Assembly: GCA_003489165.1 (NCBI GenBank)
Contig: DNJG01000077.1
Location: 1 to 38,201 of the forward strand
Length of the DNA stretch: 38,201 bases
Direction of reading: 5' to 3'
Origin: Nitrospinota bacterium
GTDB taxonomy: Bacteria; Nitrospinota; Nitrospinia; UBA9942
Below the pieces are notes generated by a model, which saw only the letters and a list, made by a program, of their open reading frames with translations, ran no database searches and had not been told where the DNA came from. How positions within the stretch are numbered: the first letter of the stretch is position 1; each line of letters opens with the position of its first letter. Of the stretch, positions 2,021-32,615 are shown piece after piece. A program made the position numbers and the translations under genes.

Positions 2021-2097
2021 TGACTATTGACTATTGAAGTTTGATAAATTAATACAATCCTTATCAATCGTCATTCGTCAATTTTCAATCTTCAATT
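2021..2097. repeat. Inverted pair of degenerate heptamer arrays (TGACTAT TGACTAT TGAAGTT TGATAAA ... ATCAATC GTCATTC GTCAATT TTCAATC TTCAATT)
   Basis: Read directly. 7-nt period on both arms, with complementary cores ATTGA/TCAAT. Fills the spacer between the 2105-2662 ORF and the phosphoesterase start. Confidence 0.8.
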
Positions 2098-2104
2098 CTA
2101 TAGG

Positions 2105-2662
2105 TTATCCTTCAAGGACTATCTGATGCCTTTCCTTAAAAGTTTCCACAGAGTGTCTCATCAGCCTGTTTAACATTAAAAATCTTCTCTTATCCTCTTC
2201 TGCTATCTTTACTGTATAATCACTCTCTGATAATTGTATTTTGCTGAATCCATTTAAGATGCCTTCAACCATATCTACGGCTATCCTGTTATATTCTGAA
2301 TCTGACACCTCTTTTATGCAGACAGAGATGCCAAAGTTTTTAACCTTCATCCTCTGGACAATATCTATAATGCTTGAAAATATGTATAAGAGTTTTGGTG
2401 AATTGAGGTTGGCCGCCTTCCCGAACCCGACTAAGAGTATTTTTTCTGTCGGCAATTTATTAAGGCTTGAAAGGAGGACGGTCTCTTTAAAATTTCCAAA
2501 AACTTTTTTTTTCTTTATAAGATTTGATATCTGCCCGTTCAAAAACCAGTCAATATTGCCTGCATTGCCTTTGAGAGGTATGACATCTTTGAAAAGTGAT
2601 ACAACGATTAGGTCGGTTTCGATTTTCAGGAATTCATCTGGCAGTGTTTTAATCTTTAACAT
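2105..2662 (-). CDS. Hypothetical protein, resembles the N-terminal (macro-like) domain of M17 leucyl aminopeptidases
   Basis: 185-aa ORF co-directional with nusB and overlapping it by 14 nt. The pattern DLIVVSLF...GNFKETVLL...ILLVGFGK resembles Peptidase_M17_N. No catalytic domain is present. Confidence 0.45.
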   Translation of the reverse strand: MLKIKTLPDEFLKIETDLIVVSLFKDVIPLKGNAGNIDWFLNGQISNLIKKKKVFGNFKETVLLSSLNKLPTEKILLVGFGKAANLNSPKLLYIFSSIIDIVQRMKVKNFGISVCIKEVSDSEYNRIAVDMVEGILNGFSKIQLSESDYTVKIAEEDKRRFLMLNRLMRHSVETFKERHQIVLEG

Positions 2663-3080
2663 TTTTCTTTTTATCGCATTTTAATTCCTTTTTTATCCTA
2701 TCAAGGATACCATTCACAAAATGACCCGAATCTTCTGTGCCGTATTTTTTTGCAATATCAATTGCCTCATTTATAGTGACATTGGAAGGTATCTCATCTT
2801 CATACAATAATTCATATACTGCGCTCCGCATTATATTTTTATCTATTTTGTTTATCCTGCCCAGAGTCCAGTGTTCACTGAATCTTTCAATGGTTGAATC
2901 AATCTCTTTTATGTGATTATAGGTGCCTTCTGCCAATTTTGTAGTAAAGGATTGAATATCATCAGGGGTTGGATTGTACTTCCAGAAATCCTCAATCTGA
3001 GATTTAATATCGTCTTTCTGAATATCCCACTGATACAGGATTTTCAGACACAATTCTCTTCCCCTTCTTCTCTTCTTCAT
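2649..3080 (-). CDS. nusB: Transcription antitermination factor NusB
   Basis: 143 aa. RRGRELCLKILYQWDI start and NusB-like helices (RSAVYELLYEDEIPSNVTINEAIDIAKKYG). Classic position downstream of ribH. Confidence 0.9.
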   Translation of the reverse strand: MKKRRRGRELCLKILYQWDIQKDDIKSQIEDFWKYNPTPDDIQSFTTKLAEGTYNHIKEIDSTIERFSEHWTLGRINKIDKNIMRSAVYELLYEDEIPSNVTINEAIDIAKKYGTEDSGHFVNGILDRIKKELKCDKKKNVKD

Positions 3081-3090
3081 TTGTCAAAAA

Positions 3091-3188
3091 ACAGAAAAAC
3101 AGAAAGCAACCACAGAGGCACTGAGACACCGAGATTAAGAACTTTAAAATAATTTATATTTCCTCTGTGACTCTGTGTCTCTGTGGTT
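3091..3188. repeat. Inverted pair of octamer arrays (CACAGAGG CACTGAGA CACCGAGA ... CTCTGTGA CTCTGTGT CTCTGTGG)
   Basis: Left arm 3108-3133 and right arm 3162-3188, with an AT-rich loop. Preceded by ACAGAAAA ACAGAAAG. Lies in the nusB-ribH spacer. Confidence 0.85.
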
Positions 3189-3193
3189 AAAAT

Positions 3194-3664: not shown

Positions 3665-3683
3665 AAGACCTCCCCTTAAAAGA

Positions 3684-3768
3684 CAGTAGGCAGTAGATAG
3701 TAGGCAGTAAGCAGTAACTCCCCTCTGTCTCTGTTTTCTTTCTACTGCTTACTCCTTACTGCTTACTG
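3684..3768. repeat. Inverted pair of heptamer arrays (CAGTAGG CAGTAGA TAGTAGG CAGTAAG CAGTAAC ... CTACTG CTTACTC CTTACTG CTTACTG)
   Basis: Five units at 3684-3718. The complementary arm at 3742-3768 runs across the ribBA stop codon (3749-3751) into its last codons. Confidence 0.88.
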
Positions 3769-4969
3769 ATGTTATTATGTGCCCCAGCTTTTTCCTCTTT
3801 GTATCAAGATATTTGACATTGTCCTTTTTAGGATGTATCTCTATCGGAACCCTATCTACTATGTGAAGCCCATATCCGTCTAATCCTACAATCTTTCTTG
3901 GATTATTTGTTATTAATCTTAAATTTTTTACTCCGAGGTTTGCAAGTATTTGGGCTCCTATACCATAATCTCTCAAGTCAGGTTTAAAGCCAAGTTCTTC
4001 ATTTGCCTGAACAGTATCTCTCCCCTGGTCTTGTAAGGCATAAGCCTTCAGCTTGTTGACAAGGCCAATGCCCCTCCCCTCCTGATAGAGATATAAGAGG
4101 ATGCCTGTCCCCTCTTTTTCTATCATCTCAAGTGCCTTATGCAGCTGCTCACCGCAGTCGCATCTGTGTGAGCCGAATACATCGCCCGTAAGACACTGTG
4201 AATGAACCCTTACAAGTATATTCTTATCAGGTGTGATTTCTCCTTTTACCAAGGCGAGGTGTATAAAATCGTTCAGTGTATTTTCAAATGCAATTACCTT
4301 AAATTCGCCGTAGTCTGAAGGAAGTTTGGTCTCTGCAGCCCTCTTGACAAAAGACTCTCTTTTCATCCTGTATTCAATGAGGTCTTTTATTGTGATAACC
4401 TTTAAGCCGAACTCCTTTGAAAATTCCATAAGCTGGGGAACTCTTGCCATAGTCCCGTCATCATTCATAATTTCACAGATAACTCCTGCCGGATATAAGC
4501 CTGCAAGCCGTGCCAAATCTACCGAGCCCTCTGTCTGACCGCTTCTAACTAAGACGCCCCCCTCCTTTGACCTGAGAGGGAATATATGCCCAGGGCTTAC
4601 AATATCGTCTTCCCTTGTCTTTGGATTGATTGCTGTAAGTATGGTAGTTGCCCTGTCATGGGCTGATATACCGGTAGTTACTCCATGCCTTGCCTCTATT
4701 GAGATTGTAAATGCAGTCCCAAATCTTGCCTCATTATTTTCAACCATCATAGGAAGATTGAGTGCTGCTACCCTTTCAGGCGTTAGAGAGAGGCATATAA
4801 GCCCCCTCCCATGCTTTGTCATAAAGTTTATTGCCTCCGGAGTGGTCTTTTCGGCAGCAATCATCAGGTCGCCCTCGTTCTCCCTGTCCTCATCATCAAC
4901 GAGGATGATCATCCTGCCTTTTTTAATGTCTTCTACCGCCTCTTCAATTGAATTAAATTTTATATCCAT
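3749..4969 (-). CDS. ribBA: Bifunctional 3,4-dihydroxy-2-butanone-4-phosphate synthase / GTP cyclohydrolase II
   Basis: 406 aa. DHBPS motif [16 protein letters not shown] zinc cluster [18 protein letters not shown] and GRGIGL. The last ~6 codons lie in a heptamer array. Confidence 0.95.
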
Positions 4970-5603
4970 GTTTTTTCAAAAAATCAGTGTTAAGTGTTGA
5001 GTGTTTAGTGTCAGTAGTCAGGTTAACAAACCTCTCTATATATTTGCCAATTATATCACATTCTATATTTACCTTCTCTCCAATTGATTTTTCCTTTAAG
5101 TTTGTCATCTCAATCGTGTGCGGTATCAATGCAATAGCAATAGAGTTGCTATCTACATTTGCTACTGTAAGACTTATGCCGTCTATTGCTACAGAACCTT
5201 TGTATATCATATATCTAATTGTATCTTCTGATGCTTTTATACCAAGATAAGCTCCATCAACTGTCCTGTCAAATTTTACTATCTCACCTATCCCATCAAT
5301 ATGTCCTGTAACAAAATGTCCGCCAAGGCGGTCACTAATTTTTATAGCCCTTTCAAGGTTTACTTTTCTTCCTGGCTTAAACCCGCCGATGGTAGTTTTC
5401 TTTACCGTTTCTTCTGAAATCTCCACCTCAAATGCATTGTTGGTATATTTTACAACGGAAAGACATGTGCCATCTATAGCTATACTTGAGCCCATGCTTA
5501 TATCATCCATTATCTTATTCGCAGCCAATGTAAGCCTAAGATTATCCCCCTTCTTAGAAATCCCCTTAACTACCCCAACTTCTTCAATCAGTCCAGTAAA
5601 CAT
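4953..5603 (-). CDS. ribE: Riboflavin synthase (alpha chain)
   Basis: 216 aa. Canonical [10 protein letters not shown] start and duplicated lumazine-binding halves ([13 protein letters not shown] / [12 protein letters not shown]). The 3-prime end overlaps the ribBA start by 17 nt. Confidence 0.93.
4985..5022. repeat. Single heptamer array (CAGTGTT AAGTGTT GAGTGTT TAGTGT CAGTAGT CAGG) within the 3-prime end of ribE
   Basis: Read directly. I found no complementary arm nearby. It encodes the ribE tail ...[12 protein letters not shown] on the minus strand. Confidence 0.75.
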
Positions 5604-5608
5604 AAGAA

Positions 5609-5675
5609 GATTTTAGATTTATGATTTACGAATTACGATTTAAAATCCTAAATCCAAAATCGTAAATCGTAAATT
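5609..5675. repeat. Inverted pair of heptamer arrays (GATTTTA GATTTAT GATTTAC GAATTAC GATTTAA / AAATCCT AAATCCA AAATCGT AAATCGT AAATT)
   Basis: Fills the whole ribD-ribE spacer. The arms abut with almost no loop, and the cores GATTT/AAATC are complementary. Confidence 0.88.
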
Positions 5676-6783
5676 ATTTCAGGTATCCTTCAACAACAAT
5701 ATCATTTCCACACCTATCCACAGTTACATCGCGGATATTCAGAGAATCACTTAGTTTTTCAAAACCCCTTCCACCCACAGCAGGTACACTCTCTTTACCG
5801 CCAATTATTTTTGGTGCAATAAAGAATATTACCTTATCAACTATACCTGACTCTAGTGCGGCAGAATTGAGTTCTGAGCCCCCTTCTATCATTATACTTG
5901 TAATCTCCATTTTGCCCAGTTCTTCCATTAAATTTGGCAGATTAATCCTTTTGTTTTCTTCCTCTATCTCTATAACATTAATCCCTTTTTCTCTCAATAT
6001 ATCTGCCTTTTTTGCATCTGCCTTCTTTGTTGCAGCAATTATGACTTTTGATTTTTGTGCCTTGCGGGAGGCAGATGCAGATTTAATAATATTGGAATCC
6101 ATTGGAATCCTTAACTGGCTGTCAACAATTATACGAATAGGGTTTTTCACATTGCCTCTTTTTAAACTTACTGTGAGATTTGGATTATCCTGTAAGACAG
6201 TCCCTATACCAACCATTACTGCATCTACCTCATCTCTTAAATTGTGGACACGTTCCCTTGAAGGTTCGGATGTTATCCATTTGGATTCTCTTTTACAGGT
6301 TGCAATCTTTCCGTCAAGGCTCATTGCAATCTTTAAGAGGACAAATGGTTTTTTTGATGTGATATATTTTATATATACCTCATTGAGCCTCTTGCATTCT
6401 TTCTCCAATAAGCCTGTAGACACCTGAATCCCCGCTCCATTCAGCTCCTCTATGCCTTTACCTGAGATTATTGGGTTGGGGTCAACCATTCCGATAACAA
6501 TTTTTTTTATTCCGCTCTTTATAATGGTTTTTGTGCATGGGGGAGTTCTACCCTTATGACAGCACGGTTCAAGGGTCACATACATTATTCCGTCTTTTGC
6601 GTTTTTACCTGCCGAATTAATTGCATTGACTTCGGCATGGGGTGTCCCTGCCTTTTTATGGCAGCCTTCCCCGACAATCTTGCCCCCCTTTATAATTACA
6701 GCCCCCACCACAGGGTTGGGGCTTGTTCTCCCCTTTGCTGTCAGGGCTAAATCAATAGCCCTTTTCATATATTTTTCAATCAT
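5674..6783 (-). CDS. ribD: Bifunctional diaminohydroxyphosphoribosylaminopyrimidine deaminase / 5-amino-6-(5-phosphoribosylamino)uracil reductase
   Basis: 369 aa. CDA zinc motifs HAEVNA and PCCHKGRTPPC, with a C-terminal RibD reductase domain (MSLDGKIA..., EGGSELN). Confidence 0.95.
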   Translation of the reverse strand: MIEKYMKRAIDLALTAKGRTSPNPVVGAVIIKGGKIVGEGCHKKAGTPHAEVNAINSAGKNAKDGIMYVTLEPCCHKGRTPPCTKTIIKSGIKKIVIGMVDPNPIISGKGIEELNGAGIQVSTGLLEKECKRLNEVYIKYITSKKPFVLLKIAMSLDGKIATCKRESKWITSEPSRERVHNLRDEVDAVMVGIGTVLQDNPNLTVSLKRGNVKNPIRIIVDSQLRIPMDSNIIKSASASRKAQKSKVIIAATKKADAKKADILREKGINVIEIEEENKRINLPNLMEELGKMEITSIMIEGGSELNSAALESGIVDKVIFFIAPKIIGGKESVPAVGGRGFEKLSDSLNIRDVTVDRCGNDIVVEGYLK

Positions 6784-8618: not shown

Positions 8619-8632
8619 ATAAAAACCTATTT

Positions 8633-11052: not shown

Positions 11053-11057
11053 AAAAT

Positions 11058-11151
11058 CAGTGAACAGTGACCAGTGCTCAGTACACAGTAAAAAATGAAT
11101 TTTAAATTCTGACTACTGACCACTGATTACTAACTACTGACCACTGTAACT
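11058..11151. repeat. Inverted pair of heptamer arrays (CAGTGAA CAGTGAC CAGTGCT CAGTACA CAGTAAA ... TGACTAC TGACCAC TGATTAC TAACTAC TGACCAC TGTAACT)
   Basis: 5 units at 11058-11092 and 6 units at 11110-11151, ending exactly at the PHP gene ATG. Starts 6 nt after the tRNA-Gly. Confidence 0.9.
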
Positions 11152-18532: not shown

Positions 18533-18540
18533 TTTAGTTT

Positions 18541-18619
18541 CAGTGGACAGTGTCAGTGTCAGTAAATTTGGATATATATATTTTTCTTTTACTGACACTA
18601 TTCACTGAAACTGTCACTC
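18541..18619. repeat. Inverted pair of 6-7-nt arrays (CAGTGGA CAGTGT CAGTGT CAGTAAA ... TTACTGACACTATTCACTGAAACTGTCACTC)
   Basis: rho-rpmE spacer. Cores CAGTG/CACTG are complementary and the loop is AT-rich. Confidence 0.85.
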
Positions 18620-18872: not shown

Positions 18873-18892
18873 TTGTAAATTAAATGAAAATT

Positions 18893-19028
18893 CGAAATAC
18901 GAATATCGAAATCCGAAACAAATTTAAAACTCAAATGGCAGAAATCCAAAACCCCATACTGTCAGCTTGTTTTGGTATTTAGATTTTGGTCATTGTTTCT
19001 AATTTCGTACTTTGAAATTCGGATTTCT
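18893..19028. repeat. Large nested palindrome: outer heptamer arrays (CGAAATA CGAATAT CGAAATC CGAAACA ... TTTCTAATTTCGTACTTTGAAATTCGGATTTC) and an inner pair (AAATCCAAAACC ... GTTTTGGTATTTAGATTTTGG)
   Basis: rpmE-prfA spacer. The right arm overlaps the spurious TTG-initiated extension of the prfA ORF. Confidence 0.8.
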
Positions 19029-19035: not shown

Positions 19036-20172
19036 ATGTTTGAAAAAATAGATTTAATAGTAGAGAGATATAACGAGATTACTGAGTTGATAAGCCGTCC
19101 TGAGATTATCTCAAGGCAGCAGGAATATCTGCGTCTTGTAAAAGAGCATGCAGAGTTATCTGATATTGTAAAAACATATCAGGGATATAAGAAGATAGTT
19201 AAGGAGACACAGGAGAGTGCTGCTCTGTTGAAAGATGAAGTTGATAAGGAATTAAGGGAACTGGTGGCAAGGGAGTTGGCTGAACTTGAGTTGAAAAGGA
19301 GTAAGTTGGAAGATGATTTAAAGATGCTCCTTATTCCAAAAGACCCTAATGATGAGAAGAATATCATTCTTGAGATAAGGGCTGGGACAGGTGGTGAAGA
19401 GGCGGCACTCTTTGCGGCTGACCTGTTTAAAATGTATTCAGCATACGCACAGAAACAAGGATGGAATGTGGATGTAATGAGCAGTAATGTTACAGGAAAG
19501 GGCGGTATTAAAGAGGTAATAGCGATGATAGAAGGCAAAGGGGTTTATAGCAAGCTGAAGTTCGAGAGCGGAATTCATAGGGTTCAGAGGGTTCCCGAGA
19601 CAGAGGCATTAGGTCGGGTGCATACATCTGCCGCAACTGTTGCAATACTCCCTGAGGCTGAGGAGATAGATGTAGTTATAGATATGAAAGATATTAGGGT
19701 TGATGTTTTCAGGTCTGGCGGACATGGCGGGCAGAGTGTAAACACAACCGACTCTGCCGTAAGGGTTACTCATATATCTACAGGAATAGTTGTATCCATG
19801 CAGGATGAAAAATCACAGCACAAAAATAAAGATAAAGCATTTAAGATACTCAGGGCAAGGCTTAAAGAAAGACAGGAAAAAGAGCAGTTTGATGCAAGGG
19901 CACTGGAGAGAAAAACTCAGGTTGGAAGCGGTGACAGGAGTGAGAAGATAAGGACATATAATTTTCCCCAGAATAGGGTTACCGACCATAGAATAGGATT
20001 AACTCTCCATAGACTTGATTCAATTTTAAAAGGTGATTTACAGGAGATAATTGATAAATTGATTATTGCCTACCAGACAGAGGCACTGAATTCAAAAGAG
20101 GATTCAAGGGTTCAAGGAGTCAAGGGATTGAGCGAAAAGAAAAGTCAAACACTTGAACCCTCGATCCCTTGA
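19036..20172 (+). CDS. prfA: Peptide chain release factor 1
   Basis: RF1 P-x-T motif (RVQRVPETE) and GGQ motif ([10 protein letters not shown]). The ATG at 19036 is preferred over the tracked TTG at 19012, which lies inside a repeat arm. The last ~25 codons are encoded by an octamer array. Confidence 0.93.
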
Positions 20173-20184
20173 CCACTTGACCAC
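20102..20184. repeat. Inverted pair of octamer arrays (ATTCAAGG GTTCAAGG AGTCAAGG GATTGAGC ... ACTTGAAC CCTCGATC CCTTGACC ACTTGACC)
   Basis: The left arm encodes the PrfA C-terminal tail. The right arm spans the prfA stop (20170-20172) and the putative prmC start. Confidence 0.88.
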
Positions 20185-21148
20185 TATAATTTTAAGAGAT
20201 ATTCTTAATTGGGCAGCAGAATATCTCAAAAGTCATAATATCCCCTCTGCCCGCCTCGATTCAGAAGTCCTCCTTTCTTTTGTCTTGAATAAAGACCGCA
20301 CATATCTCTACGTAAATTCAGAAACCAGAATACAGAAGTCAGAAGTCAGAAGATTCAAAGAATTTATTGAGAGAAGGGGGATGATGGAGCCTGTAAGCTA
20401 TATTACAGGGGAGAAAGAATTCTGGTCACTCAAATTTAAGGTAACAAAGGATACCCTTATACCAAGACCAGAAACAGAGGTACTCGTTCAGACTGTTCTG
20501 GATATAATCAGAAGCCAGAAGTCAGAAGTCAGAAGTCAGAAGTCAGAAGCATGCCTTGAGCGAAGTCTAAAGGTTAAAAATCTTCAATCTCCAATCTTCA
20601 ATCCCATACGCATCCTTGACATTGGGACAGGTTCTGGAAATATTGCAGTTAGTATTGCAAAAGAGAGCCCGGAGTCTCATGTTTTTACAGTAGATAAGTC
20701 AGATAGTGCATTATCTGTTGCAAAGGAAAATGCAATAATTCATAATGTAGCAGGAAGGATTATCTTCTTAAAGGGTGATTTATATATTCCATTTAATCCT
20801 CCTGGCCCCCTTTTCATAAAGGAGGGTAAGGAGAGATTATTTGATATTATTGTATCAAATCCGCCTTATATACCAACATGTGATATAGAGGGATTAATGC
20901 CTGAGGTAAGGGACTGGGAGCCGAGATGGGCTCTTGACGGCGGAAAAGACGGATTGGAGATTATACAGAAAATAATAAAAGATGCGCCACTGTTCTTGGA
21001 ATCAGGTGGTTTTATAGCAATGGAGATAGGTTTTGGTCAGTATGAGGAGGTATCTCGTATTATTTCAGACATAGATAAATTTCATAATATAAAAACGATA
21101 AAAGATTTATCAGGGATTGAAAGGGTTGTTACTGCATGGAAAAGATAA
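20153..21148 (+). CDS. prmC: Release-factor glutamine N5-methyltransferase PrmC (HemK)
   Basis: SAM motif ILDIGTGSG and catalytic VSNPPYI. The start is uncertain: no ATG, only TTG candidates at 20153 and 20177, both inside a repeat arm. Contains in-frame heptamer arrays. Confidence 0.88.
20319..20353 (+). repeat. In-frame heptamer array in the prmC N-terminal domain (CAGAAAC CAGAATA CAGAAGT CAGAAGT CAGAAGA)
   Basis: Read directly. Encodes [12 protein letters not shown]. Confidence 0.85.
20509..20601 (+). repeat. In-frame composite element in prmC: CAGAAGC (CAGAAGT)x4 CAGAAGC, a 30-nt spacer, then TCTTCAA TCTCCAA TCTTCAA
   Basis: Six units at 20509-20550 and three units at 20581-20601. Encodes [31 protein letters not shown] immediately before the SAM-binding ILDIGTGSG motif. 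Confidence 0.9.
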
Positions 21149-23157: not shown

Positions 23158-24441
23158 ATGAAAATAATTAAATCATGGGAAGATGGATTTGATGAAGCCC
23201 TCAATAGGATTGTAAATAGGGGGAGAATTGGCAGGGCAGATGTAGAGGCTTCTGTCCGGAATATCATAAATCAGGTGAGGGAAAAAGGCGATGAGGCGGT
23301 CATAAAATTTACAAAGAAATTTGATAATTACCATCTTTCACCTGAAAATATAAAGGTATCAGGAGAGGAGATTGAAAATGCCTATGCATCAATAGACAAG
23401 AAGATTTTAGAGCATTTAAGATTTACTGCCGAGAGGATAAAAAAATTTCATGAGCATCAGGTGGAGAAGTCTTGGAGTTATAAGGAAGAAGGCATACTGC
23501 TCGGACAGGTTATAAGACCACTTGCTATTGCCGGGGTATATGCGCCTGGCGGCAAGGCATCATATCCGTCTTCTGTATTAATGAATGTCATTCCTGCAAA
23601 AGTTGCCGGTGTAAAAAAAGTTGTTATGTGTACACCTGCATCGGCAGGAAGGCTGAATCCGTATGTGCTTATAGCGGCAGATATAGTTGGTGTTGACGAA
23701 ATATTCTGTATTGGAGGTGCACAGGCAATAGCTGCTATGGCTTACGGGACAGAAACTATTCCAAAAGTGGATAAGATTGTTGGGCCTGGCAATGTATATG
23801 TGGCAGAGGCAAAGAGGATGGTTTTTGGGGATGTAGATATTGATATGGTGGCAGGACCAAGCGAGATACTTATTATAGCTGATAAAAGTGCAAGGGCTGA
23901 TTTCATTGCAGCAGACCTTCTCTCTCAGGCGGAGCATGATGAACTATCATATCCTCTGCTCATAACAGATTCTTTGGATTTAGCCACTGATGTAGTAAAG
24001 GAGCTTGATATTCAGAAAAAATCACTTAGCCGTTCTGAAATTATAGATAATTGTCTAAAGAACAATTGTATCTGTTTTATAGTGAGAAATATTGAGGATG
24101 GTATAACCCTATCAAATAAGATTGCCCCTGAACATTTAGAATTGATGATAGAAGACTCTGATGAGATGATTGATAAAGTCAAAAATGCTGGTGCCATATT
24201 TCTTGGCAAGTTTACACCTGAGGCAGTCGGTGATTATGCGGCAGGGCCCAATCATGTATTGCCGACAGGAGGGACTGCGAGATTTTTTTCGCCTCTTGGG
24301 GTTTATGACTTTGTGAAGAGGTCAAGCCTCATATCCTTTAACGAGAAGTCTTTAAAGGATATTGCACCTACTGTAAAAGGCATAGCTGAGGCAGAGGGTT
24401 TAACAGCCCATGCAAAGGCGGTAGAGATACGCCTTAAATAA
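23158..24441 (+). CDS. hisD: Histidinol dehydrogenase
   Basis: 427 aa. Motifs [27 protein letters not shown] and GPNHVLPT. Confidence 0.97.
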
Positions 24442-24566
24442 CCAAACACCAATACTAATCACCAAATAAACTCCAATTACCAATAATCAAAAGGTTATAT
24501 GTTTGGTTATTGGTGATTGAATCATTGGTTATTATTTGGCTTTTGTGATTTGGGTATTGGTTATTA
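24441..24566. repeat. Inverted pair of heptamer arrays (ACCAAAC ACCAATA CTAATC ACCAAAT ... CAATAAT / GTTTGGT TATTGGT GATTGA ... TGGGTAT TGGTTAT)
   Basis: Fills the hisD-hisC spacer. The cores ACCAA/TTGGT are complementary. Confidence 0.88.
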
Positions 24567-24575
24567 TTTTGAGTT

Positions 24576-25648: not shown

Positions 25649-26236
25649 ATGGAGAGGAAGGCTGAGGTTAAAAGAAAGACGAAAGAGACAGATATTAGCG
25701 TTTGTTTAAAATTAAATGGCAGGGGTGAATATAAGGTAAATACTGCTGTCCCATTTTTAGACCACATGCTTTCTCAGATTGCAAAGCATGGTCTTTTTGA
25801 TATGGAGATTAATGCAAAGGGTGATACGGATGTAGATTTTCATCACACTGTTGAAGATGTAGGGATAGCACTCGGAGATGCATTTAAGAAAGCACTTGGA
25901 GAAAAGGTGGGTATAAAAAGATATGGGCACGCAGTGATACCTTTGAATGAAGCGCTCTCAATGGTTTCAGTGGATATAAGCGGGAGACCATTTATTGTCT
26001 ATAATGTCAAGATGCCAAAAGAAAAGGTTGGAGAATTTGATGTAGAGTTGACAGAGGAATTTTTCAGGGCATTTGCAAATAGCAGCGGTATGAGTCTGCA
26101 TATAAATATGATATATGGGAATAATCTCCACCATATAATTGAATCAATCTTCAAAGCAGCAGCAAGGGCATTAGATGAGGCCACCTCCTTAGATGAAAGA
26201 GTAAAGGGGATACCCTCTACGAAGGGAAAACTGTAA
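25649..26236 (+). CDS. hisB: Imidazoleglycerol-phosphate dehydratase
   Basis: 195 aa. Motifs [24 protein letters not shown] and NLHHIIES. Confidence 0.97.
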
Positions 26237-26243
26237 AAGCAGG

Positions 26244-26310
26244 GGTTAGGGATTAGGGGATAGGGGTTAGTAAAAAAACTAATCCCAAGTCCCTAACTCC
26301 AAGTCCCTAA
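26244..26310. repeat. Inverted pair of heptamer arrays (GGTTAGG GATTAGG GGATAGG GGTTAGT ... ACTAATC CCAAGTC CCTAACT CCAAGTC CCTAA)
   Basis: hisB-hisH spacer. The G-rich arm also satisfies a G-quadruplex motif (see findings). Confidence 0.88.
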
Positions 26311-26314
26311 TTCT

Positions 26315-26986
26315 ATGATTGCAATAATAGACTACGGAATGGGTAATTTGAGGAGTGTCCAGAAGGGGTTTGAGAGGGTTGGACATGAAGCTGTTGTAAC
26401 AAATAATCCCCAAGAGATACTTTCTGCTGATGGAGTTGTCTTGCCCGGTGTTGGTGCATTTAAAGACTGCATGAGGAATTTAGAAAATGGCAGATTGATT
26501 GATACTGTATATAAGGTTATAGAAAATGGTAAACCCTTCCTTGGCATCTGTCTTGGTCTTCAGCTTTTGTTCACAGAAAGTGAGGAATTTGGTATTCATA
26601 AAGGTTTGGATATTGTTAAGGGTAGAGTTGTAAAATTCTCTTTTAATACTCCGAACTCCGAACTCCAAACTCCGAACTTTAAAGTTCCCCACATGGGATG
26701 GAATAGCATAAAAAAGAGTGGTCAGTGGTCAGTGGTCAGTGGTCAGAAAAACCAATTTTCATCTATTTATGAAGGGATACCTGACAACTCCTTTTTTTAT
26801 TTTGTCCATTCCTATTATGTAATACCGGAAGATGATGATGTTATAGCATCCACGACTGACTATGGGGTTGAGTTTGTTTCAAGCATCTATAAGGATAATA
26901 TCTTCGCCTGCCAGTTTCATCCCGAGAAGAGTCAGGAAGCCGGCTTAAAGTTGCTAAAGAATTTTGGAGATTTTTGTAAATGTTAA
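26315..26986 (+). CDS. hisH: Imidazole glycerol phosphate synthase, glutamine amidotransferase subunit
   Basis: 223 aa. Motifs IAIIDYGMGN, nucleophile elbow GICLGLQLL, VPHMGWN and QFHPEKS. Two in-frame heptamer arrays flank VPHMGWN. Confidence 0.95.
   Translation: MIAIIDYGMGNLRSVQKGFERVGHEAVVTNNPQEILSADGVVLPGVGAFKDCMRNLENGRLIDTVYKVIENGKPFLGICLGLQLLFTESEEFGIHKGLDIVKGRVVKFSFNTPNSELQTPNFKVPHMGWNSIKKSGQWSVVSGQKNQFSSIYEGIPDNSFFYFVHSYYVIPEDDDVIASTTDYGVEFVSSIYKDNIFACQFHPEKSQEAGLKLLKNFGDFCKC
26648..26678 (+). repeat. In-frame heptamer array in hisH (ACTCCGA ACTCCGA ACTCCAA ACTCCGA ACT)
   Basis: Read directly. Encodes TPNSELQTPN just before the conserved KVPHMGWN. Confidence 0.92.
26718..26746 (+). 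repeat. In-frame perfect heptamer array in hisH (GTGGTCA x4 + G)
   Basis: Read directly. Encodes SGQWSVVSGQ just after the conserved VPHMGWN. Confidence 0.92.
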
Positions 26987-27720
26987 TAATTCCAGCAATT
27001 GATATAAAAGGCGGCAGGTGTGTAAGGCTCTTTCAGGGGAGGATGGAGCAGGAGACCGTGTATTCAGATGACCCTGTATCAGTTGCAAAGAGATGGGAGG
27101 ATGAGGGGGCTGAGTTTCTTCATATTGTAGATTTAGATGGTGCCGTATCTGGTGTCCCAAAAAATAAGGAGATAATAGAAAGCATAATAAAATCAGTAAA
27201 AATTCCTCTGGAAGTTGGCGGAGGAATAAGAAATATAGAAACTATAAAAGAGTATTTTTCCATAGGGGCTAAAAAGGTTGTAATTGGGACAGTTGCATGG
27301 GAAAATCCTATCCTTATTAGTGAAGTCTGCAAGGTGTTTCCTGAAAGGATTATCGTGGGAATAGATGCTAAAAATGGTAATGTGGCAGTGAGGGGGTGGG
27401 AAGATGTTACTGATACATCTGCCTCTGAATTGGCAAAAAGGTTTGAAGGTATGGGTATATCAGGTATTATATATACAGATATAAGCAGGGATGGAACTCT
27501 TTCAGGACCCAATATAGATTCAATTAAGTTTTTTGCAAAATCAATTAGCATTCCCGTAATTGCATCAGGAGGGGTGTCGGATATTAACGATATAAAAAAT
27601 ATTATGAAACTAAAAAAACATGGAGTGGATGGGGTGATAATTGGGAAGGCGCTTTACAGCGGTTCTGTGAATTTAAGAGAGGCAATTAAGTTAGTGGGTA
27701 GTGAAAATTTCGGTGAATAG
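26980..27720 (+). CDS. hisA: 1-(5-phosphoribosyl)-5-[(5-phosphoribosylamino)methylideneamino]imidazole-4-carboxamide isomerase
   Basis: 246 aa. Motifs IIPAIDIKGGRCVRL, HIVDLDGA, VGGGIR and ASGGV. The C-terminal ~9 codons lie in a repeat arm. Confidence 0.95.
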   Translation: MLIIPAIDIKGGRCVRLFQGRMEQETVYSDDPVSVAKRWEDEGAEFLHIVDLDGAVSGVPKNKEIIESIIKSVKIPLEVGGGIRNIETIKEYFSIGAKKVVIGTVAWENPILISEVCKVFPERIIVGIDAKNGNVAVRGWEDVTDTSASELAKRFEGMGISGIIYTDISRDGTLSGPNIDSIKFFAKSISIPVIASGGVSDINDIKNIMKLKKHGVDGVIIGKALYSGSVNLREAIKLVGSENFGE

Positions 27721-27767
27721 TCGTCAGTAAAAACTATTCACTATTCACTAACTACTAATGACTAATC
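27692..27767. repeat. Inverted pair of heptamer arrays (TAGTGGG TAGTGAA AATTTCG GTGAATA GTCGTCA GTAAAAA / CTATTCA CTATTCA CTAACTA CTAATGA CTAATC)
   Basis: The left arm covers the last ~9 hisA codons and its stop. The right arm ends at the hisF ATG. Confidence 0.85.
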
Positions 27768-28601
27768 ATGCTTACACGAAGAATAATCCCCTGTCTTGAT
27801 GTAAAGGATGGCAGGGTTGTAAAAGGGGTTAAATTTTTAAATTTAAGGGATGCAGGGGACCCTGTTGATGTTGCTGAGATTTATGACAGGGAAGGGGCAG
27901 ACGAGATTACATTTCTTGATATTACAGCCTCACATGAAAACAGAAATATTATTATTGATGTAGTTTATAGGACAGCAGAAAGGGTCTTCATGCCACTTAC
28001 AGTTGGCGGTGGCATAAGGACACTTGATGATATAAGAAATTTATTGAAGGCAGGTGCGGATAAGGTTTCAGTAAATACCGCAGCAGTTAAAGACCCTGAA
28101 TTTGTAAAGAGGGCATCTGAAAGATTTGGTAGTCAGTGCATTGTGGTGGCAATAGATGCGAAAAAAATACAGAAGACAGGAGACAGAAGACAGAAGGCAG
28201 AAAAAAAAGAAAATTTAAACTCCGAACTCCGAACTCCGAACTCCGAACTTTTAAGGTGGGAGGTTTTTACACACGGGGGTCGTAATCCTACAGGACTTGA
28301 TGCAGTGGAGTGGTCTCAAAGGATGGAAGAGTATGGTGCAGGAGAGATACTCCTTACAAGTATGGATAGAGACGGGACGAAAGAGGGATATGATATTGAA
28401 TTGACAAAAAACATATCAGAGACAGTCGGTATCCCTGTTATAGCATCAGGAGGGGCTGGCAATCTACAGCATCTTTATGAGGGATTTATGGAAGGGAAGG
28501 CAGATGCCGTCCTTGCCGCATCTATATTTCATTATCGTGAATATACAATTAAAGAGGCAAAAGAGTTTTTAAGAGGGAAAGGGGTTAATGTAAGGTTATA
28601 A
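27768..28601 (+). CDS. hisF: Imidazole glycerol phosphate synthase, cyclase subunit
   Basis: 277 aa. Motifs [33 protein letters not shown] and ASGGAG. It is longer than I recall for typical HisF (~250 aa) because of an internal double heptamer array. Confidence 0.95.
28170..28249 (+). repeat. In-frame double array in hisF: CAGAAGA CAGGAGA CAGAAGA CAGAAGG CAGAAAA, an A-rich spacer, then (ACTCCGA)x4 ACT
   Basis: Arrays at 28170-28204 and 28219-28249. Encode [27 protein letters not shown] between the conserved VVAIDAK and W.VFTHGG segments. Confidence 0.92.
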
Positions 28602-29255
28602 ATGGACATAAAAAATCTAAAATACGACAGTAACGGTTTAATACCAGCAATTATTCAAGACTGGAAGAATGGTGATGTGTTGATGCATGCCTATATGAAT
28701 GAGGAGTCATTAAAGAAGACTATTGAAACTGGCTATACCCATTTCTGGAGCAGGTCAAGGGGAAAGCTCTGGAAAAAAGGGGAGACATCCGGAAATGAGC
28801 AGATTGTCAAAGAAATAAACTATGACTGTGATAATGATACATTACTTGTAAAAGCAGAGCAAAAGGGTGTTGCCTGCCATACAGGTAATAGGACATGCTT
28901 TTTCGGTAAGTTATTTGAAAGTCCGAAATCCGAAGTCCGAAGTCCGAAGTCCGAACTAATTGACAAGATATATGAGGTAATTCTGGACAGGAAAAGAAAT
29001 ATGAGAGAAGGTTCCTATGTATCTTCACTATTTAAAAAAGGCAGAGATAAGATACTTAAAAAGATAGGAGAAGAGGCATCAGAGGTAGTGATAGGTTCTA
29101 AGAATGACAAGAAAGAAGAAATTATCTACGAGATAGCAGACCTCTGGTTTCACTCCCTTGTTTTGTTGGGGTATCATGATATAACCCCTGAAGATATTTA
29201 TAAAGAATTACAAAAAAGATTCGGCAAGTCAGGAATTAGAGATGAGAAAAAATAG
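28602..29255 (+). CDS. hisI: Bifunctional phosphoribosyl-AMP cyclohydrolase / phosphoribosyl-ATP pyrophosphatase
   Basis: 217 aa. HisI part ([26 protein letters not shown]) and HisE part ([19 protein letters not shown]). A heptamer array lies in the inter-domain linker. Confidence 0.95.
28921..28955 (+). repeat. In-frame heptamer array in hisIE (GTCCGAA ATCCGAA GTCCGAA GTCCGAA GTCCGAA)
   Basis: Read directly. Encodes [12 protein letters not shown] at the HisI/HisE domain junction. Confidence 0.92.
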
Positions 29256-29363
29256 CTGTTAGCAGTCCTTTCAATAGGTTGCTTATTCTTTAACCCCCTT
29301 TAATTCCTATTTATATTTTCGTAATTCATATCTATCGTTTCTCTCAGTAAAACTTCACACAAA

Positions 29364-29403
29364 TGTAACATAAGGTTAATAATCCTGTAACATAAAGGCT
29401 GTA
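29364..29403 (+). promoter_or_regulatory. Putative tandem Pho boxes (7-nt half-sites on an 11-bp period) upstream of the porin-pst operon
   Basis: TGTAACA at 29364 and again at 29386 (22 bp apart). Weaker half-sites lie on the same 11-bp register (GTTAATA at 29375, GGCTGTA at 29397). A TATATT -10-like hexamer follows at 29407-29412. Confidence 0.4.
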
Positions 29404-29445
29404 AAGTATATTATAAAAATTTATAATATAATTCAGAAGGAGGAA

Positions 29446-30636
29446 ATGAAAATGATTAAAATAAATTTAGTTGGCGGGTTATTTGCACTATTGCTTACTA
29501 TTCCATTTTCAGTAAATGCAGAAATAAAAGATCCTCTTCTCCAGAAATTAGTGGAGAAAGGGACTATTACAATGGAAGAGGCAGAAGACATTGCAGGTAA
29601 AAGTAAGGCTGAATTACCAAAAGGGCTTCAGGGAATAAGTATCGGAGGATTGGCTTACTTAGATTACTCAGCAGGAACAACAGGCCATGTTGAGACAAAC
29701 TATAACAAGTTCTCAATAACAAGGGGATATATCAATATAAAAAAGGATATAACGCCATGGTTCAAGGCAAGGGTTACTTCTGATATTACACAAATAACAA
29801 ATACATCAAATTCACAAAGAGGTGATATAGAATTAAGACTTAAATACTATTATATTGATATTCTAACTTCTGACTTTGGCATGCTTTCTGATAATGATTT
29901 AAGAATTGGGGTCAGTCAGACTCCCTGGCTCGACTTTCAGCAGAGTATAAATATTTACAGGATGCAGGGGGCAATGTTTCAGGAAAGGTTTAAGAATTTC
30001 AACTCTGCAGACATGGGCATAGGATTACTTGGTAATTTTGGCGGTAAGTTAAGCAAAGAATTGCAGGAAAATGTAGGCTATCACACCCCATATTCAGGCA
30101 GATACGGAAGTTACCATATTGGTATATACAATGGCGGAGGTTATTATGCGGCGGAGGATAATCAAAATAAGGTGGTTGAAGGAAGGATAACATTAAGACC
30201 TCTGCCGGACTTAATCCCTGGCTTACAGTTAAGCTATCTTGGTGTATCAGGAAAAGGGAATAAGTCAACAGACCCTGAATGGACGAATAATTCTGGTTTA
30301 TTAAGCTGCCAGAACAGGTATATAGTCCTTACAGGTGAATATACTCAGGCAAAGGGTCAACAGGACGGTTCTGACGAGAAGAAAAAGAGGGGATACTCTG
30401 TATTCGGCAACCTTAAGATTCCCTTATATGACAGAGTTGCCATTATGGGAAGATATGATGTGTGGGACCCTGATACAGATTCATCCAACGATACACAGAA
30501 TCTGTTAATAACCGGCTTAAGCTATAAGGTTCATGATAACAATTATCTGCTTATAGTCTATGAACAGCTGCATTATGAGAATGCCGGATACAAAGATGAT
30601 AAAAAGGGGCAGGTTGTATTTCAGGTGAGTTTTTAA
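29446..30636 (+). CDS. Outer-membrane beta-barrel porin, likely phosphate-selective (OprO/OprP-like)
   Basis: 396 aa. Signal peptide (LFALLLTIPFSVNA), alternating beta-strand pattern, and a C-terminal aromatic residue (VVFQVSF). Sits directly upstream of pstS. Strong SD AAGGAGG upstream. Confidence 0.6.
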   Translation: MKMIKINLVGGLFALLLTIPFSVNAEIKDPLLQKLVEKGTITMEEAEDIAGKSKAELPKGLQGISIGGLAYLDYSAGTTGHVETNYNKFSITRGYINIKKDITPWFKARVTSDITQITNTSNSQRGDIELRLKYYYIDILTSDFGMLSDNDLRIGVSQTPWLDFQQSINIYRMQGAMFQERFKNFNSADMGIGLLGNFGGKLSKELQENVGYHTPYSGRYGSYHIGIYNGGGYYAAEDNQNKVVEGRITLRPLPDLIPGLQLSYLGVSGKGNKSTDPEWTNNSGLLSCQNRYIVLTGEYTQAKGQQDGSDEKKKRGYSVFGNLKIPLYDRVAIMGRYDVWDPDTDSSNDTQNLLITGLSYKVHDNNYLLIVYEQLHYENAGYKDDKKGQVVFQVSF

Positions 30637-30656
30637 AATAAAGGGGGAGTAACAAT

Positions 30657-31652
30657 ATGAGAAAAATAGTTATAAGTTTATTAATTATGCTTGTATTATT
30701 ATCAGCAGTAATAGTTCATTCAGCCCAGCTTATAAAGGTAGACGGCTCTTCTACTGTCTATCCCATAACTGAGGCTGTAGCAGAGGAGTTTCAGAAGTCT
30801 GAAAAAGGGAGTACAAGGATAACAGTAGGGATATCCGGCACAGGTGGTGGTTTTAAGAAGTTCTGTAATGGGGAGACAGATGTAAGTAATGCCTCAAGGC
30901 CAATAAAGCCTACTGAGGTTGAACTTTGTAAAAAGAATGGTGTAGAATACATTGAACTTCCGGTTGCTTATGACGGCCTTGCTGTTATAATTAACCCAAA
31001 AAATAGCTGGGTTGACTATATGACTGTGAAGGAACTAAAAAAGCTCTGGGAACCTGAGGCACAGGGGAAGATTAAAAAATGGAATCAGATTCGTTCCAAC
31101 TGGCCTAACAAGGAGATACACCTCTTTGGTGCAGGAGTGGATTCAGGTACCTACGACTATTTTACTGAGGCAGTTGTGGGGAAGGAGCATTCAAGCCGTG
31201 GTGATTTCACATCCAGTGAGGATGATAATGTCCTCGTTCAGGGTATTTCCAGTGATAACTTTGCCTTAGGTTTTTTTGGCATGGCATATTATGAGCACAA
31301 TAAGGATAAGCTGAAGATTGTGCCGGTTGATGATGAGAATGATGCAAATGGGAAGGGGCCAATTATTCCTGAATATGAAAATGTAGTGAAAGGAATATAT
31401 CAGCCTCTGTCAAGGCCCCTGTTTATTTATGTTAGTAAAAAATCTGCTGACAAGCAGGAGGTAAAGAGGTTTATTGACTTCTATATGAAGGGTGCTGCCG
31501 AACTCTCCAAAGAGGTTGGCTATATTTCCTTACCCAATACAGCTTATGAGCTTGTGCTCAAGAGGTTTGAAAATCGTAAAGTCGGTTCTATATTCGGCGG
31601 CCACGGTTCTCAGGTTGGTGTAAAGATTGAAGAACTCTTGAAGAAGGAATAA
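30657..31652 (+). CDS. pstS: Phosphate ABC transporter substrate-binding protein
   Basis: 331 aa. Signal peptide, then [16 protein letters not shown] and SRP motifs of the PstS/PBP family. Confidence 0.92.
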
Positions 31653-32542
31653 TGCATAGAAATCTTCAGAAAATAAAAGAGAAGGCAATTGAGAAGGCGC
31701 TCTTTTTGAGTGCCTTCTTTTCTGTTTTTATTACACTTGGCATTGTAGGTGTCCTTATATTTGAGACTTTTGAGTTTTTCAAAGAGGTATCTGTTTTTGA
31801 TTTTTTAACTGACACCCAATGGACGCCGTTGTTTGCTGAAAAGCACTTTGGCATCATGACACTCTTTGCAGGGACATTATTGACAACTGTAATTGCAATG
31901 AGCGTATCATTACCGGTTGGGCTTATAAGTGCAATATACCTGAGTGAATACGCATCAAAGAAGATAAGGATAGCTATAAAGCCTGCCCTTGAAATACTTG
32001 CAGCGGTGCCAACAGTGGTGTATGGCTATTTTGCCCTTCTCTTTGTAACCCCCCTTCTTCAAAAGGTTATTCCAGAACTTTCTGGCTTTAATTCTCTTTC
32101 ATCAGGTATTGTCATGGGGATTATGATAATTCCTATCATATCGTCTTTAAGTGAAGACGCTTTGCATTCCGTGCCAATGAGTTTACGGGAGGGTTCAATG
32201 GCACTCGGGTCAACAAAGTTCCAAACATCAATAAAGGTGATTTTGCCTGCAGCACTTTCAGGCGTTGCCGCCTCGTTTATACTTGGCATATCAAGGGCAA
32301 TCGGGGAGACAATGATTGTGGCGATTGCAGCCGGGCAGCAGCCGAGGCTCACATTAAATCCGCTTGTCCCTGTAGAAACCATTACAGCATATATAGTTCA
32401 GGTGAGCCTTGGGGATACACCCACAGGAACGCTTGAGTATAAGACTATATTTGCAGCAGGGATGAGTTTATTTGTAGTTACATTTGGCTTAAACATGATA
32501 AGTTATTTTCTCAAAAAAAGGTTTAGAGAAGTATATGAATAG
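31652..32542 (+). CDS. pstC: Phosphate ABC transporter permease PstC
   Basis: 296 aa. Multi-TM protein with the EAA-loop region ALGSTKFQT...ISRAIGETM. The start overlaps the pstS stop. Confidence 0.92.
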
Positions 32543-32550
32543 AAAAGAAG

Positions 32551-32615
32551 CACCAAATCCCAAACACCAAATTCCAATAATCAAGTAGTTTGGAATTTGT
32601 TATTTGAAATTTAAC
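32551..32615. repeat. Inverted pair of heptamer arrays (CACCAAA TCCCAAA CACCAAA TTCCAAT AATCAAG / TAGTTTGGAATTTGTTATTTGAAATTTAAC)
   Basis: pstC-pstA spacer. Cores CCAAA/TTTGG are complementary. Same unit family as 24441-24566. Confidence 0.82.

Follow-up and report, generated by a model that had tools for sequence, protein, structure and literature searches.

Inverted arrays of 7- and 8-nucleotide repeats at operon junctions, and in-frame arrays within core genes, in a groundwater Nitrospinota bacterium

Introduction

Cyanobacteria have been known since 1990 to contain tandem repeats of a heptameric unit, and other phyla were subsequently added to the list. The canonical units of these short tandemly repeated repetitive (STRR) sequences, STRR1 to STRR3, are said to go back to Mazel and colleagues in 1990 and to read CCCCAGT, TTGGTCA, and CAACAGT. 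The present study concerns arrays of comparably short units in a 38,201-nucleotide stretch of DNA from a Nitrospinota bacterium (GenBank assembly GCA_003489165.1, contig DNJG01000077.1, positions 1 to 38,201), referred to throughout as the window, where they occupy spacers between co-directional genes, mostly as inverted pairs that fold into hairpins, and also lie in frame inside genes. We consider it slightly better than even, at a rough probability of 0.55, that the array hairpins are products of DNA-level insertion and expansion that are tolerated because of their position and are not conserved regulatory RNAs.

Several described systems offer points of comparison. In Nostoc, Anabaena, and Lyngbya, STRR hairpins occupy the hupS/hupL spacer, with a proposed role in stability or translational coupling (PMC2670836). 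Each Xanthomonas genome carries 70 to 75 convergent pairs of GGGAATC arrays, which are capable of forming stem-loops and are located preferentially between open reading frames (ORFs) that are aligned, and Nostoc has GGGGA(T/C)T arrays; the length of these repeats varies between species while the single or paired type is kept (Rehm et al. 2015, PMC4692102). Marine Beggiatoaceae, cyanobacteria, and Bacteroidetes have direct repeats of TAACTGA that immediately precede start codons without a Shine-Dalgarno sequence, including those of essential operons, and some overlap ORF ends or sit within ORFs; 169 sets are direct and one is indirect, and the patchy phylogenetic spread suggests horizontal transfer (MacGregor 2015, PMC4679880). 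According to Mrazek et al. 2007, as relayed in PMC4679880, no class of long simple-sequence repeat is commoner than heptamers in many bacteria. Finally, rRNA intervening sequences with an S23p ORF are regarded as selfish, horizontally moving elements with terminal inverted repeats that are cut by RNase III (PMC4990558).

Results

Tandem arrays were sought with a sliding test requiring at least three units and at least 80% lag identity, with 30 block shuffles as the background. This detector returned 15 period-7 arrays where 0.23 were expected (shuffle maximum, 1) and four period-8 arrays where 0.2 were expected, and array counts in the window at periods 5, 6, 9, and 10 stayed at background. 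In spacers of at least 40 nt, lag-7 self-identity was 0.349 versus 0.283 (z = 8.2), the signal recurring at lag 14 (z = 4.6) and at lag 21 (z = 5.8). Tandem Repeats Finder reported repeats of period 7 or 8 at most of the 12 loci listed in an earlier note on this DNA. The heptameric period described there thus rises well above shuffled controls, and the arrays, among which heptamers predominate, are longer than composition predicts.

All 12 listed loci share the same build, an array followed by an A/T-rich loop and then by a second array roughly complementary to the first, and each of the 12 folds into a single long hairpin on the transcribed strand (Table 1). Fold z-scores, computed with dinucleotide-preserving shuffles unless mononucleotide shuffles are named, ranged from -1.46 to -5.98 and were -2.7 or lower at 10 of the 12. 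As the earlier note had claimed, the five promoter-like spacers were array-free (fold z-scores: 9486-9601, -0.80; 10867-10976, -0.26; 14621-14723, -0.97; 17069-17284 and 29256-29445, -1.2 and 0.0 with mononucleotide shuffles); the array-free spacer 23028-23157 scored +0.41. The inverted-array build was present in 10 of 16 co-directional spacers of at least 40 nt; a spacer of 37 nt also has it, and a further hairpin lies within the prfA 3' end. The claim that almost every spacer longer than about 40 nt carries it was too strong, as it is absent from 8619-8705, 15831-15907, and 23028-23157. Stems started 0 to 6 nt past the upstream stop codon at 7 of the 10 junctions measured (later at rpmE/prfA and pstC/pstA), and most finished at or close to the next start codon. 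The downstream gene had no Shine-Dalgarno match at 7 of 10 measured junctions; most array-free spacers have one.

Table 1. Hairpin loci and in-frame arrays of the window, with fold z-scores
Position	Strand	Feature	Arms or units	Fold z	Remarks
2016..2099	-	Hairpin, M17-N-domain gene/metallophosphoesterase junction	TGACTAT-type 2016-2038; TCAATCG-type 2064-2099	-2.06	Weakest fold apart from 3681..3771
3108..3188	-	Hairpin, ribH/nusB spacer, 8-nt units	CCACAGAG-type 3111-3134 (on +); CTCTGTGA-type 3160-3188	-5.00	Stem ~30 bp with regularly spaced mismatches, beginning 4 nt past ribH stop codon
3681..3771	-	Hairpin, ribBA/ribH spacer	CAGTAGG/TACTGCT heptamers	-1.46 (-2.7 with mononucleotide shuffles)	One arm enters ribBA 3' end; stem begins at stop codon; GGAGG Shine-Dalgarno site after stem
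5607..5678	-	Hairpin, ribD/ribE spacer	GATTTAC/AAATCGT heptamers	-4.34	Stem immediately past ribD stop codon; ribE without Shine-Dalgarno site
11055..11146	+	Hairpin, tRNA-Gly(CCC)/PHP-domain gene	CAGTGNN x4.5; CTGAC(C/T)A x5.4	-5.51	End 5 nt upstream of ATG; no Shine-Dalgarno site
18536..18619	+	Hairpin, rho/rpmE spacer	CAGTG(GA/TC) arm, A/T loop, complement arm	-5.98	
18888..19028	+	Composite hairpin, rpmE/prfA spacer	Outer CGAAAT(N)/ATTTCG arms around second inverted repeat	-2.72	
20099..20186	+	Hairpin, 8-nt units, nearly all inside prfA 3' end	GGNTTCAA/CTTGACCA	-5.46	prfA stop 20172, prmC start 20177; prmC begins 4 nt after prfA stop
24441..24569	+	Hairpin, hisD/hisC spacer	Degenerate CACCAA(N) arm; TTGGT(N)AT arm	-3.92	
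26241..26310	+	Hairpin, hisB/hisH spacer	GGGGTTA x4.3; CTAA(C/T)CC-type arm	-4.94	Adjoins hisH ATG; no Shine-Dalgarno site
27692..27767	+	Hairpin, hisA/hisF, 81-nt insertion	(G)TAGTG(N) arm; CTATTCA-type arm	-4.89	
32551..32615	+	Hairpin, pstC/pstA spacer	CACCAAA(T) arm; TTTGGAA-type arm	-3.03	
4984..5011	-	Unpaired in-frame heptamer array, RibE C-terminal tail	AACACT(N) (coding strand)		
20318..20603	+	Three in-frame arrays, prmC	(A/T)CAGAAG 20318-20354; TCAGAAG x6 20508-20551; AATCTTC x3.6 20579-20603		
26646..26748	+	Two in-frame arrays, hisH	ACTCCGA x4.4 26646-26678; AGTGGTC x4.3 26715-26748		Not mutually complementary
28166..28251	+	Two adjacent in-frame arrays, hisF	ACAGAAG x4.9; AACTCCG x4.6		Encode residues 135-163
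28919..28958	+	In-frame array, hisIE	AAGTCCG x5.3		Between PRA-CH and PRA-PH domains

Stable stem-loops downstream of stop codons could suggest intrinsic (Rho-independent) terminators or attenuators within the operons, and attenuation had been among the roles proposed for them. A terminator scan of positions 17000-33000 returned 14 terminator-like sites, none of which was at an array locus (0/14), and this reading was rejected: the hairpins are not transcription terminators. Their stems are A/T-rich with regularly spaced mismatches and are followed by no U-tract, several enter or lie within coding sequence (prfA, hisA, ribBA), and the genes that follow them encode essential steps of the same pathways, leaving an attenuator or terminator role very improbable. 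An Rfam search matched only a tRNA and found no known RNA family at the arrays.

No hairpin in the window is a copy of another, and no consensus is common to all copies. Cores nevertheless recur between loci (CAGTG/CACTG at about five, CAGAAG at three, CTCCG at three, and CACCAA at two), so the units are not private to single loci, as had been proposed.

The arrays were unchanged in five independent assemblies of near-identical strains (L081-L085; 99.5-100% identical), where none of 145 differences fell inside an array and no unit number differed. An assembly artifact is therefore excluded, and the arrays are not hypervariable among near-identical strains. Unit-number polymorphism was present in more distant relatives, and relatives at ~87% and ~77% identity carry arrays at 0.2-0.76 per kb, compared with 0.5 per kb in the window, so that the arrays are not confined to it. 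Loci from other phyla were almost array-free over ~1.5 Mb; when periods 7 and 8 were subsequently counted together, 2.0 Mb of such loci had 0.036 arrays per kb. Sequence added beyond the window ends (~9.3 kb upstream and ~3.8 kb downstream) had almost no further arrays; the upstream part was essentially array-free, with six spacers lacking them.

The window has a G+C content of ~38% and its host is a groundwater Nitrospinota metagenome-assembled genome (MAG) of ~39% G+C. Among species-representative genomes, the nearest PrmC relatives were NC_groundwater_948 "39_25" (78%) and RIFCSPLOWO2_12_39_16 (76%), both groundwater Nitrospinota MAGs, so that overall PrmC identity to the closest such MAGs is 76-78%, and proteins identical to those of the window are present in Rifle-aquifer metagenome assemblies. 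An exact DNA match to the window was sought in the same collection of representatives, with no hit. The host is therefore a Nitrospinota bacterium; that it is not a cyanobacterium had been surmised from its Rho and LpxI genes. Rho is genuine, its ATPase domain matching in Pfam along with Rho_N and Rho_RNA_bind, and positions 6806-7618 hold an LpxI gene. The window operons are ribD-ribE-ribBA-ribH-nusB, encoded on the minus strand, a group of lipid A genes with that for LpxI, rho-rpmE-prfA-prmC-murA, hisG-D-C-B-H-A-F-IE, and pstS-C-A-B-phoU.

The arrays resemble cyanobacterial STRR sequences in having tandem 7-nt units at many intergenic loci, here the 15 period-7 arrays, and hairpins inside operons; unit strings shared with Nostoc are ctgactactgac and G-rich units of the GGGGT type. 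They differ in their Nitrospinota host, in the many unit types found within 38 kb, in their more degenerate units, and in the frequent in-frame arrays of housekeeping genes. No tandem copy of CCCCAGT, TTGGTCA, or CAACAGT was found on either strand of the window, only related cores (CAGT, GTGGTCA). The resemblance to STRR sequences pointed out earlier is thus borne out for the period, some cores, and the intra-operon hairpins, but not for the canonical units in tandem.

Other heptamer systems are matched in part. The GGGGTTA array at 26241-26270 (x4.3) is a G-rich unit of the same general type as those of Xanthomonas and Nostoc. However, Xanthomonas has one dominant G-rich unit with a proposed G-quadruplex role, whereas the units of the window are numerous, for the most part not G-rich, and sometimes 8 nt long; the G-tract unit, preferentially in four copies, of G-quadruplex-forming GGGNATC-type repeats (Rehm et al. 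2015) is matched only at 26241-26270, the other 11 loci not being G-rich. The Beggiatoaceae repeats are likewise heptamer arrays near starts without Shine-Dalgarno sites, some of them in ORFs or overlapping ORF ends, but they consist of a single unit, almost always in direct orientation, in contrast to the inverted pairs and many units of the window, in which no tandem TAACTGA was found. Furthermore, a scan for CAGTGNN x4 returned more than 120 contigs, compared with about one expected by chance (an estimate from collection size and pattern). These came from Acidobacteria, Planctomycetes, Chloroflexi, Cyanobacteria, Bacteroidota, and others and included inverted pairs, those of Terracidiphilus (Acidobacteria) folding at -75 to -98 kcal/mol. 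Given such pairs in many phyla and the inverted heptamer pairs of Xanthomonas (PMC4692102), the architecture is not special to the window genome. With the same architecture in cyanobacteria, Xanthomonas, and other phyla, it is a known one, and what is new is the Nitrospinota host: our literature search found no paper linking Nitrospinae to such repeats, although one may exist.

Relatives for comparison were found with PrmC as the query, Rho being too conserved for this purpose, and an L31 query in metagenomes gave about five useful relatives among the matches listed. They comprised L086 (~94% identity), L087 and L088 (~87%), and L089 (~77%), together with the metagenome contigs L167-L169. Alignment of orthologous spacers, a check that had been suggested at the outset, revealed arrays that were present, absent, or wholly replaced at the same spacers. 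For example, the rho/rpmE spacer holds a CAGTG-type hairpin in the window, L087, and L088 and a GCAATGA-type hairpin in L086, L089, and L167-L169, the 3' arm of the latter having 1.5 to 3 units depending on the relative. The orthologous rpmE/prfA spacer contains at least five unrelated inserts among relatives, including a long-armed element resembling a miniature inverted-repeat transposable element (MITE), and hisB/hisH holds three different elements in three genomes, L087 having another hairpin and L089 a PF05635 gene between inverted arrays. Plain spacers of 46-50 nt are found in L087 at rpmE/prfA and hisD/hisC (the latter 50 nt and unrelated), and L089 has a MITE-like insert at hisD/hisC. 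The clearest insertion is at hisA/hisF: the two genes overlap in L087 and L089, with the hisF GTG start lying within the hisA 3' end, and in the window an 81-nt hairpin stands between them, its 5' arm forming a new HisA C-terminus and hisF starting with ATG instead of GTG.

Conservation of the hairpins was bimodal, some being near-identical and others unalignable between genomes whose third codon positions are 75-85% identical. The prfA/prmC hairpin is identical at 101/101 positions in L088 and different in L087 and L089, and the rho/rpmE hairpin of L087 is 94% identical to that of the window, loop included, with third codon positions at 75%. The hisG/hisD spacer (23028-23157, 130 nt), which is array-free and has no significant fold, is identical at 128/130 positions in L087, with third codon positions at ~75%, and appears from this alignment to be a conserved non-coding element. 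Since this spacer is equally conserved, the conservation signal is not specific to hairpins.

Two further observations concern the relatives. The MITE-like element in their operon spacers (L089:7296-7431 at hisD/hisC and L167:2738-2900 at rpmE/prfA) has termini with GGAC(G/A)CAGA(N3-4)ACGCAGA sub-repeats and an internal "gtcattccga" segment, and shorter hairpins sharing its termini occur in the contig L448 (2755-2865 and 6816-6911). L086 encodes an identical Rho, but it has ligA upstream of rho instead of anmK and a GCAATGA-type hairpin downstream (compared with window positions 17074-18788), a layout that points to possible recombination or rearrangement around a conserved rho.

These comparisons bear on the possibility that the hairpins are selected intercistronic RNA elements, acting as 3'-end stabilizers, as RNase III or RNase E sites, or as start-region gates opened by the upstream ribosome, with the repeat structure being merely the way in which this lineage builds stems. 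Their distribution fits such a role, as they are found only at co-directional junctions, those of the rib, his, pst, and rho-prfA operons, and the five promoter-like spacers have none. So does their placement, within 6 nt of the stop codon at 7 of 10 junctions and mostly ending near a start codon, with 7 of 10 downstream genes lacking a Shine-Dalgarno site. Orthologous hairpins also exceed synonymous sites in conservation, different hairpins at the same spacer in relatives imply that some hairpin is kept, spacer arrays are paired and coding arrays unpaired, and transcript stability or translational coupling has been proposed for cyanobacterial STRR hairpins (PMC2670836). However, relatives manage without them, through the hisA/hisF overlap of L087 and L089 and the plain rpmE/prfA and hisD/hisC spacers of L087, as do the six spacers upstream of the window. 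Sense and antisense strands folded equally (Wilcoxon p = 0.44) and the strand comparison found no sense-strand preference for G-U pairs, so nothing indicates tuning at the RNA level; loops are conserved as much as stems, and the same type of repeat occurs in coding sequence, where such a role is inapplicable. On balance we consider it rather unlikely that the hairpins are selected RNA elements, although an RNA-level role in stability, processing, or coupling is possible on the strength of their placement, the conservation of orthologous copies, and the pairing of spacer arrays.

Nine further arrays, absent from the earlier list, lie in frame within genes: one in RibE, three in prmC, and two each in hisH and hisF, with a last one in hisIE (Table 1). 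They do not form inverted pairs, with the partial exception of the GAAG/CTTC complementarity in prmC. At the same protein site, unit and length vary among relatives in steps that are multiples of 3 nt. This is the case for the prmC arrays in L087, L088, and L089, in unit type as well as copy number, and for the hisF site, which has other units and lengths in L087 and L089. The second hisH array (26715-26748) and the hisIE array are absent from both L087 and L089. In the proteins, the hisH arrays fall at sites with shorter loops in solved HisH structures, and the two hisF arrays encode the whole of a 29-residue insertion (residues 135-163) that is missing from all solved HisF structures. It is unusual for in-frame arrays to be this dense in core enzymes. 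Of all heptamers, 69% have no stop codon in any frame, and avoidance of stop codons therefore does not force the recurrence of units across genes. The presence of arrays in frame inside genes fits a local repeat-generating mechanism, which the earlier note had raised as an option, better than a purely regulatory reading.

Another possibility is that the arrays are ordinary long microsatellites, formed in place by polymerase slippage with a preference for 7-nt steps, as put forward by Mrazek and colleagues in 2007, with inverted pairs arising from a short ancestral stem-loop that expanded in both arms by template switching inside the quasi-palindrome. Heptamers are the most abundant class of long simple-sequence repeats in many bacteria in the survey of Mrazek et al. 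2007, as it is presented in PMC4679880, and 7-nt indels distinguish Cyanothece strains. The copy number of the arms varies among our relatives, and coding and non-coding DNA are affected alike. Slippage alone is nevertheless improbable, as close relatives have unrelated units at the same site with no intermediates, an 81-nt block was inserted where the relatives' genes overlap, identical cores turn up at loci that are unrelated and in different phyla, and strains show no copy-number variation. Moreover, the stems retain regularly spaced mismatches, which repeated template switching should have perfected.

The hisB/hisH insert of L089 (9164-9580) is a cassette in which a 117-residue ORF lies between inverted CACCAGNN arrays. 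The encoded protein belongs to PF05635 (E = 8.5e-34) and TIGR02436, the "23S rRNA intervening-sequence protein", is distantly Avd-like, and has solved homologues (2gsc, 2rld). With this protein as the query, 80 loci (L367-L446) were retrieved solely by homology, 76 of which were usable. Flanking inverted repeats scoring at least 13 were present at 47/76 of these loci, in many phyla, compared with 0/286 displaced controls, and the best period of the flanks was 7 in 37 cases and 8 in 14. Within 200 nt of the PF05635 ORF there were 3.3 arrays per kb; the remainder of these loci had 0.23 per kb and the 2.0 Mb background 0.036 per kb. A comparison of PF05635-adjacent with other noncoding spacers in the same loci gave 5/21 versus 6/20, in a small sample where ORF masking had swallowed stop-free arrays. 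In the reciprocal direction, loci picked only for their CAGTGNN arrays gave nine PF05635 hits in 0.87 Mb, compared with none in 2.0 Mb; arrays directly flank or abut the PF05635 ORF in five sequence-checked loci (L314, L366, L327, L285, and L287) and lie beside it by coordinates in L255 and L278. The association between PF05635 genes and inverted arrays of 7-8-nt units is solid, and our literature search found no paper linking these genes to flanking tandem repeats, although the link may still have been published.

The CACCAGNN arrays were found only around one PF05635 subfamily, always in + orientation upstream and - orientation downstream, in cassettes from at least four phyla (among them Nitrospinota, Nitrospirota, Omnitrophota, and Planctomycetia) with differing gene contexts (hisB/hisH versus flgL/csrA). 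Close homologues have 8-nt units and distant homologues 7-nt units. That each PF05635 subfamily travels with its own unit and period suggests that the protein may recognize the arrays. One Ignavibacteria genome has four PF05635 copies with common arrays, and in L370 a cargo-less hairpin of the same unit adjoins the cassette.

These data raise the possibility that mobile palindromic cassettes similar to 23S rRNA intervening sequences form a family, of which the window hairpins would be MITE-like members without cargo, the full form being a PF05635 gene (S23p/TIGR02436, an Avd-like four-helix-bundle protein) between inverted 7-8-nt arrays whose stems would be putative RNase III substrates. The L089 cassette is exactly such an element in the hisB/hisH spacer of a relative. 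The excess of flanking repeats over displaced controls, the local array density, the reciprocal hits, the confinement of CACCAGNN to one subfamily across phyla and gene contexts, the four Ignavibacteria copies, and the L370 hairpin all speak for this possibility. Terminal inverted repeats forming a long stem are common to rRNA intervening sequences and the window hairpins, and an ORF in the loop is common to the former and the L089 insert; in rRNA elements with S23p ORFs these repeats are cut by RNase III (PMC4990558). On the other hand, the elements described here sit in mRNA operon spacers and not in rRNA, their stems consist of 7-8-nt tandem units, and the window hairpins have no ORF. All window loci lie between or within protein-coding genes, apart from the tRNA-Gly(CCC) flank of the hairpin before the PHP-domain gene; none is inserted in 23S rRNA. 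No PF05635 gene was found in the window, the ~9.3 kb upstream, or the 3.8 kb downstream, and the Nitrospinota cassettes have CACCAGNN units unlike any in the window. There is no sign of a transposase, a target-site duplication, or a mechanism of transposition; a recombinase is unlikely to be a small helical protein, and PF05635 genes could instead insert into, or survive in, the loops of pre-existing hairpins. A cassette origin for the window hairpins is therefore possible but doubtful, and that the ORF-less hairpins belong to the same class as the PF05635 cassettes is a hypothesis.

The relation to classical small repeats needs similar qualification. Repetitive extragenic palindromic (REP) sequences, bacterial interspersed mosaic elements, and MITEs are likewise small intergenic palindromes between convergent or co-directional genes, fold in the mRNA, and are polymorphic for presence and absence, but the window copies have no common consensus, their arms are internally repetitive, and there is no target-site duplication at hisA/hisF. 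Neither a REP-associated tyrosine transposase (RAYT-type) gene nor any other transposase gene was among the Pfam matches of the window. The earlier note had set REP and MITE elements aside, correctly as far as a shared consensus in the window is concerned; the dismissal was premature, however, in view of the presence/absence patterns, the replacement at fixed sites, and the same architecture flanking a mobile gene cassette.

Some features of the window stand apart from the arrays. The coding strand is purine-rich over the whole window, with a strong excess, and GC skew is +0.2 to +0.35 for + strand genes and negative for - strand genes, switching at ~9.5 kb with gene orientation. A small antitoxin-like ORF and a ParE-family toxin gene lie between pstB and phoU (34274-34782); in the related contig L448, phoU directly follows pstB. 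The 25-nt sequence AGTGAAAGTCTGYGGCTTAAATAGG is present in two copies, 8626-8650 (-) and 15876-15900 (+), where 0 are expected by chance. Each copy finishes ~7 nt before a start codon, that of a GFO_IDH_MocA-family oxidoreductase gene and that of anmK, and the copy in spacer 8619-8705 is part of a hairpin (z = -4.1).

Discussion

We favor an origin of the array hairpins in DNA-level insertion and expansion, followed by tolerance according to position. Palindromic modules would arrive, or be replaced, as whole units at gene junctions, and their arms would then be lengthened or trimmed by unit steps; array generation may combine unit-step slippage with the insertion or copying of palindromic modules. 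Survival would be favored where harm is least, that is, at junctions between co-transcribed genes and in protein loops and tails. At junctions, the insert would form a hairpin in the transcript, with the stop and start codons held close together, which may be what makes it tolerable: with the insert folded, the two cistrons would be effectively adjacent and translational coupling could persist. At hisA and prfA, the upstream gene simply reads into or through the insert. The hairpins may also affect translation or mRNA decay.

Several observations weigh against this origin. Where hairpins are orthologous, they and their loops exceed synonymous sites in conservation, which could mean function beyond tolerance. 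The constancy of unit numbers in near-identical strains indicates that slippage is not fast. Spacer arrays are almost always inverted pairs and coding arrays are not, an asymmetry that would imply either selection for folding in spacers or separate origins. The comparison of the filled and empty hisA/hisF sites, a single one, yielded neither a target-site duplication nor a conserved terminus. Tolerated insertion and a selected RNA function are not mutually exclusive.

These results extend heptamer repeats, for which there is no agreed origin or function, to the Nitrospinota. The relatives display their dynamics, namely, insertion in overlapping gene pairs, replacement at fixed junctions, and in-frame colonization of housekeeping enzymes, which are relevant to the tolerance of operons for junk, to the survival of translational coupling after insertions, and to the origin of new protein loops. 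Beyond this lineage, the link between arrays and PF05635, found in both directions and across phyla, provides a testable hypothesis for the origin of the repeats. Speculatively, and at well under even odds, array hairpins including the STRR-like ones may be the cargo-less form of widespread, hitherto undescribed mobile palindromic cassettes that insert in transcribed spacers and are neutralized or excised from the RNA via their stem. If this is true, STRR-type repeats and the "23S rRNA intervening-sequence protein" family, two long-standing orphans, would receive a common explanation.

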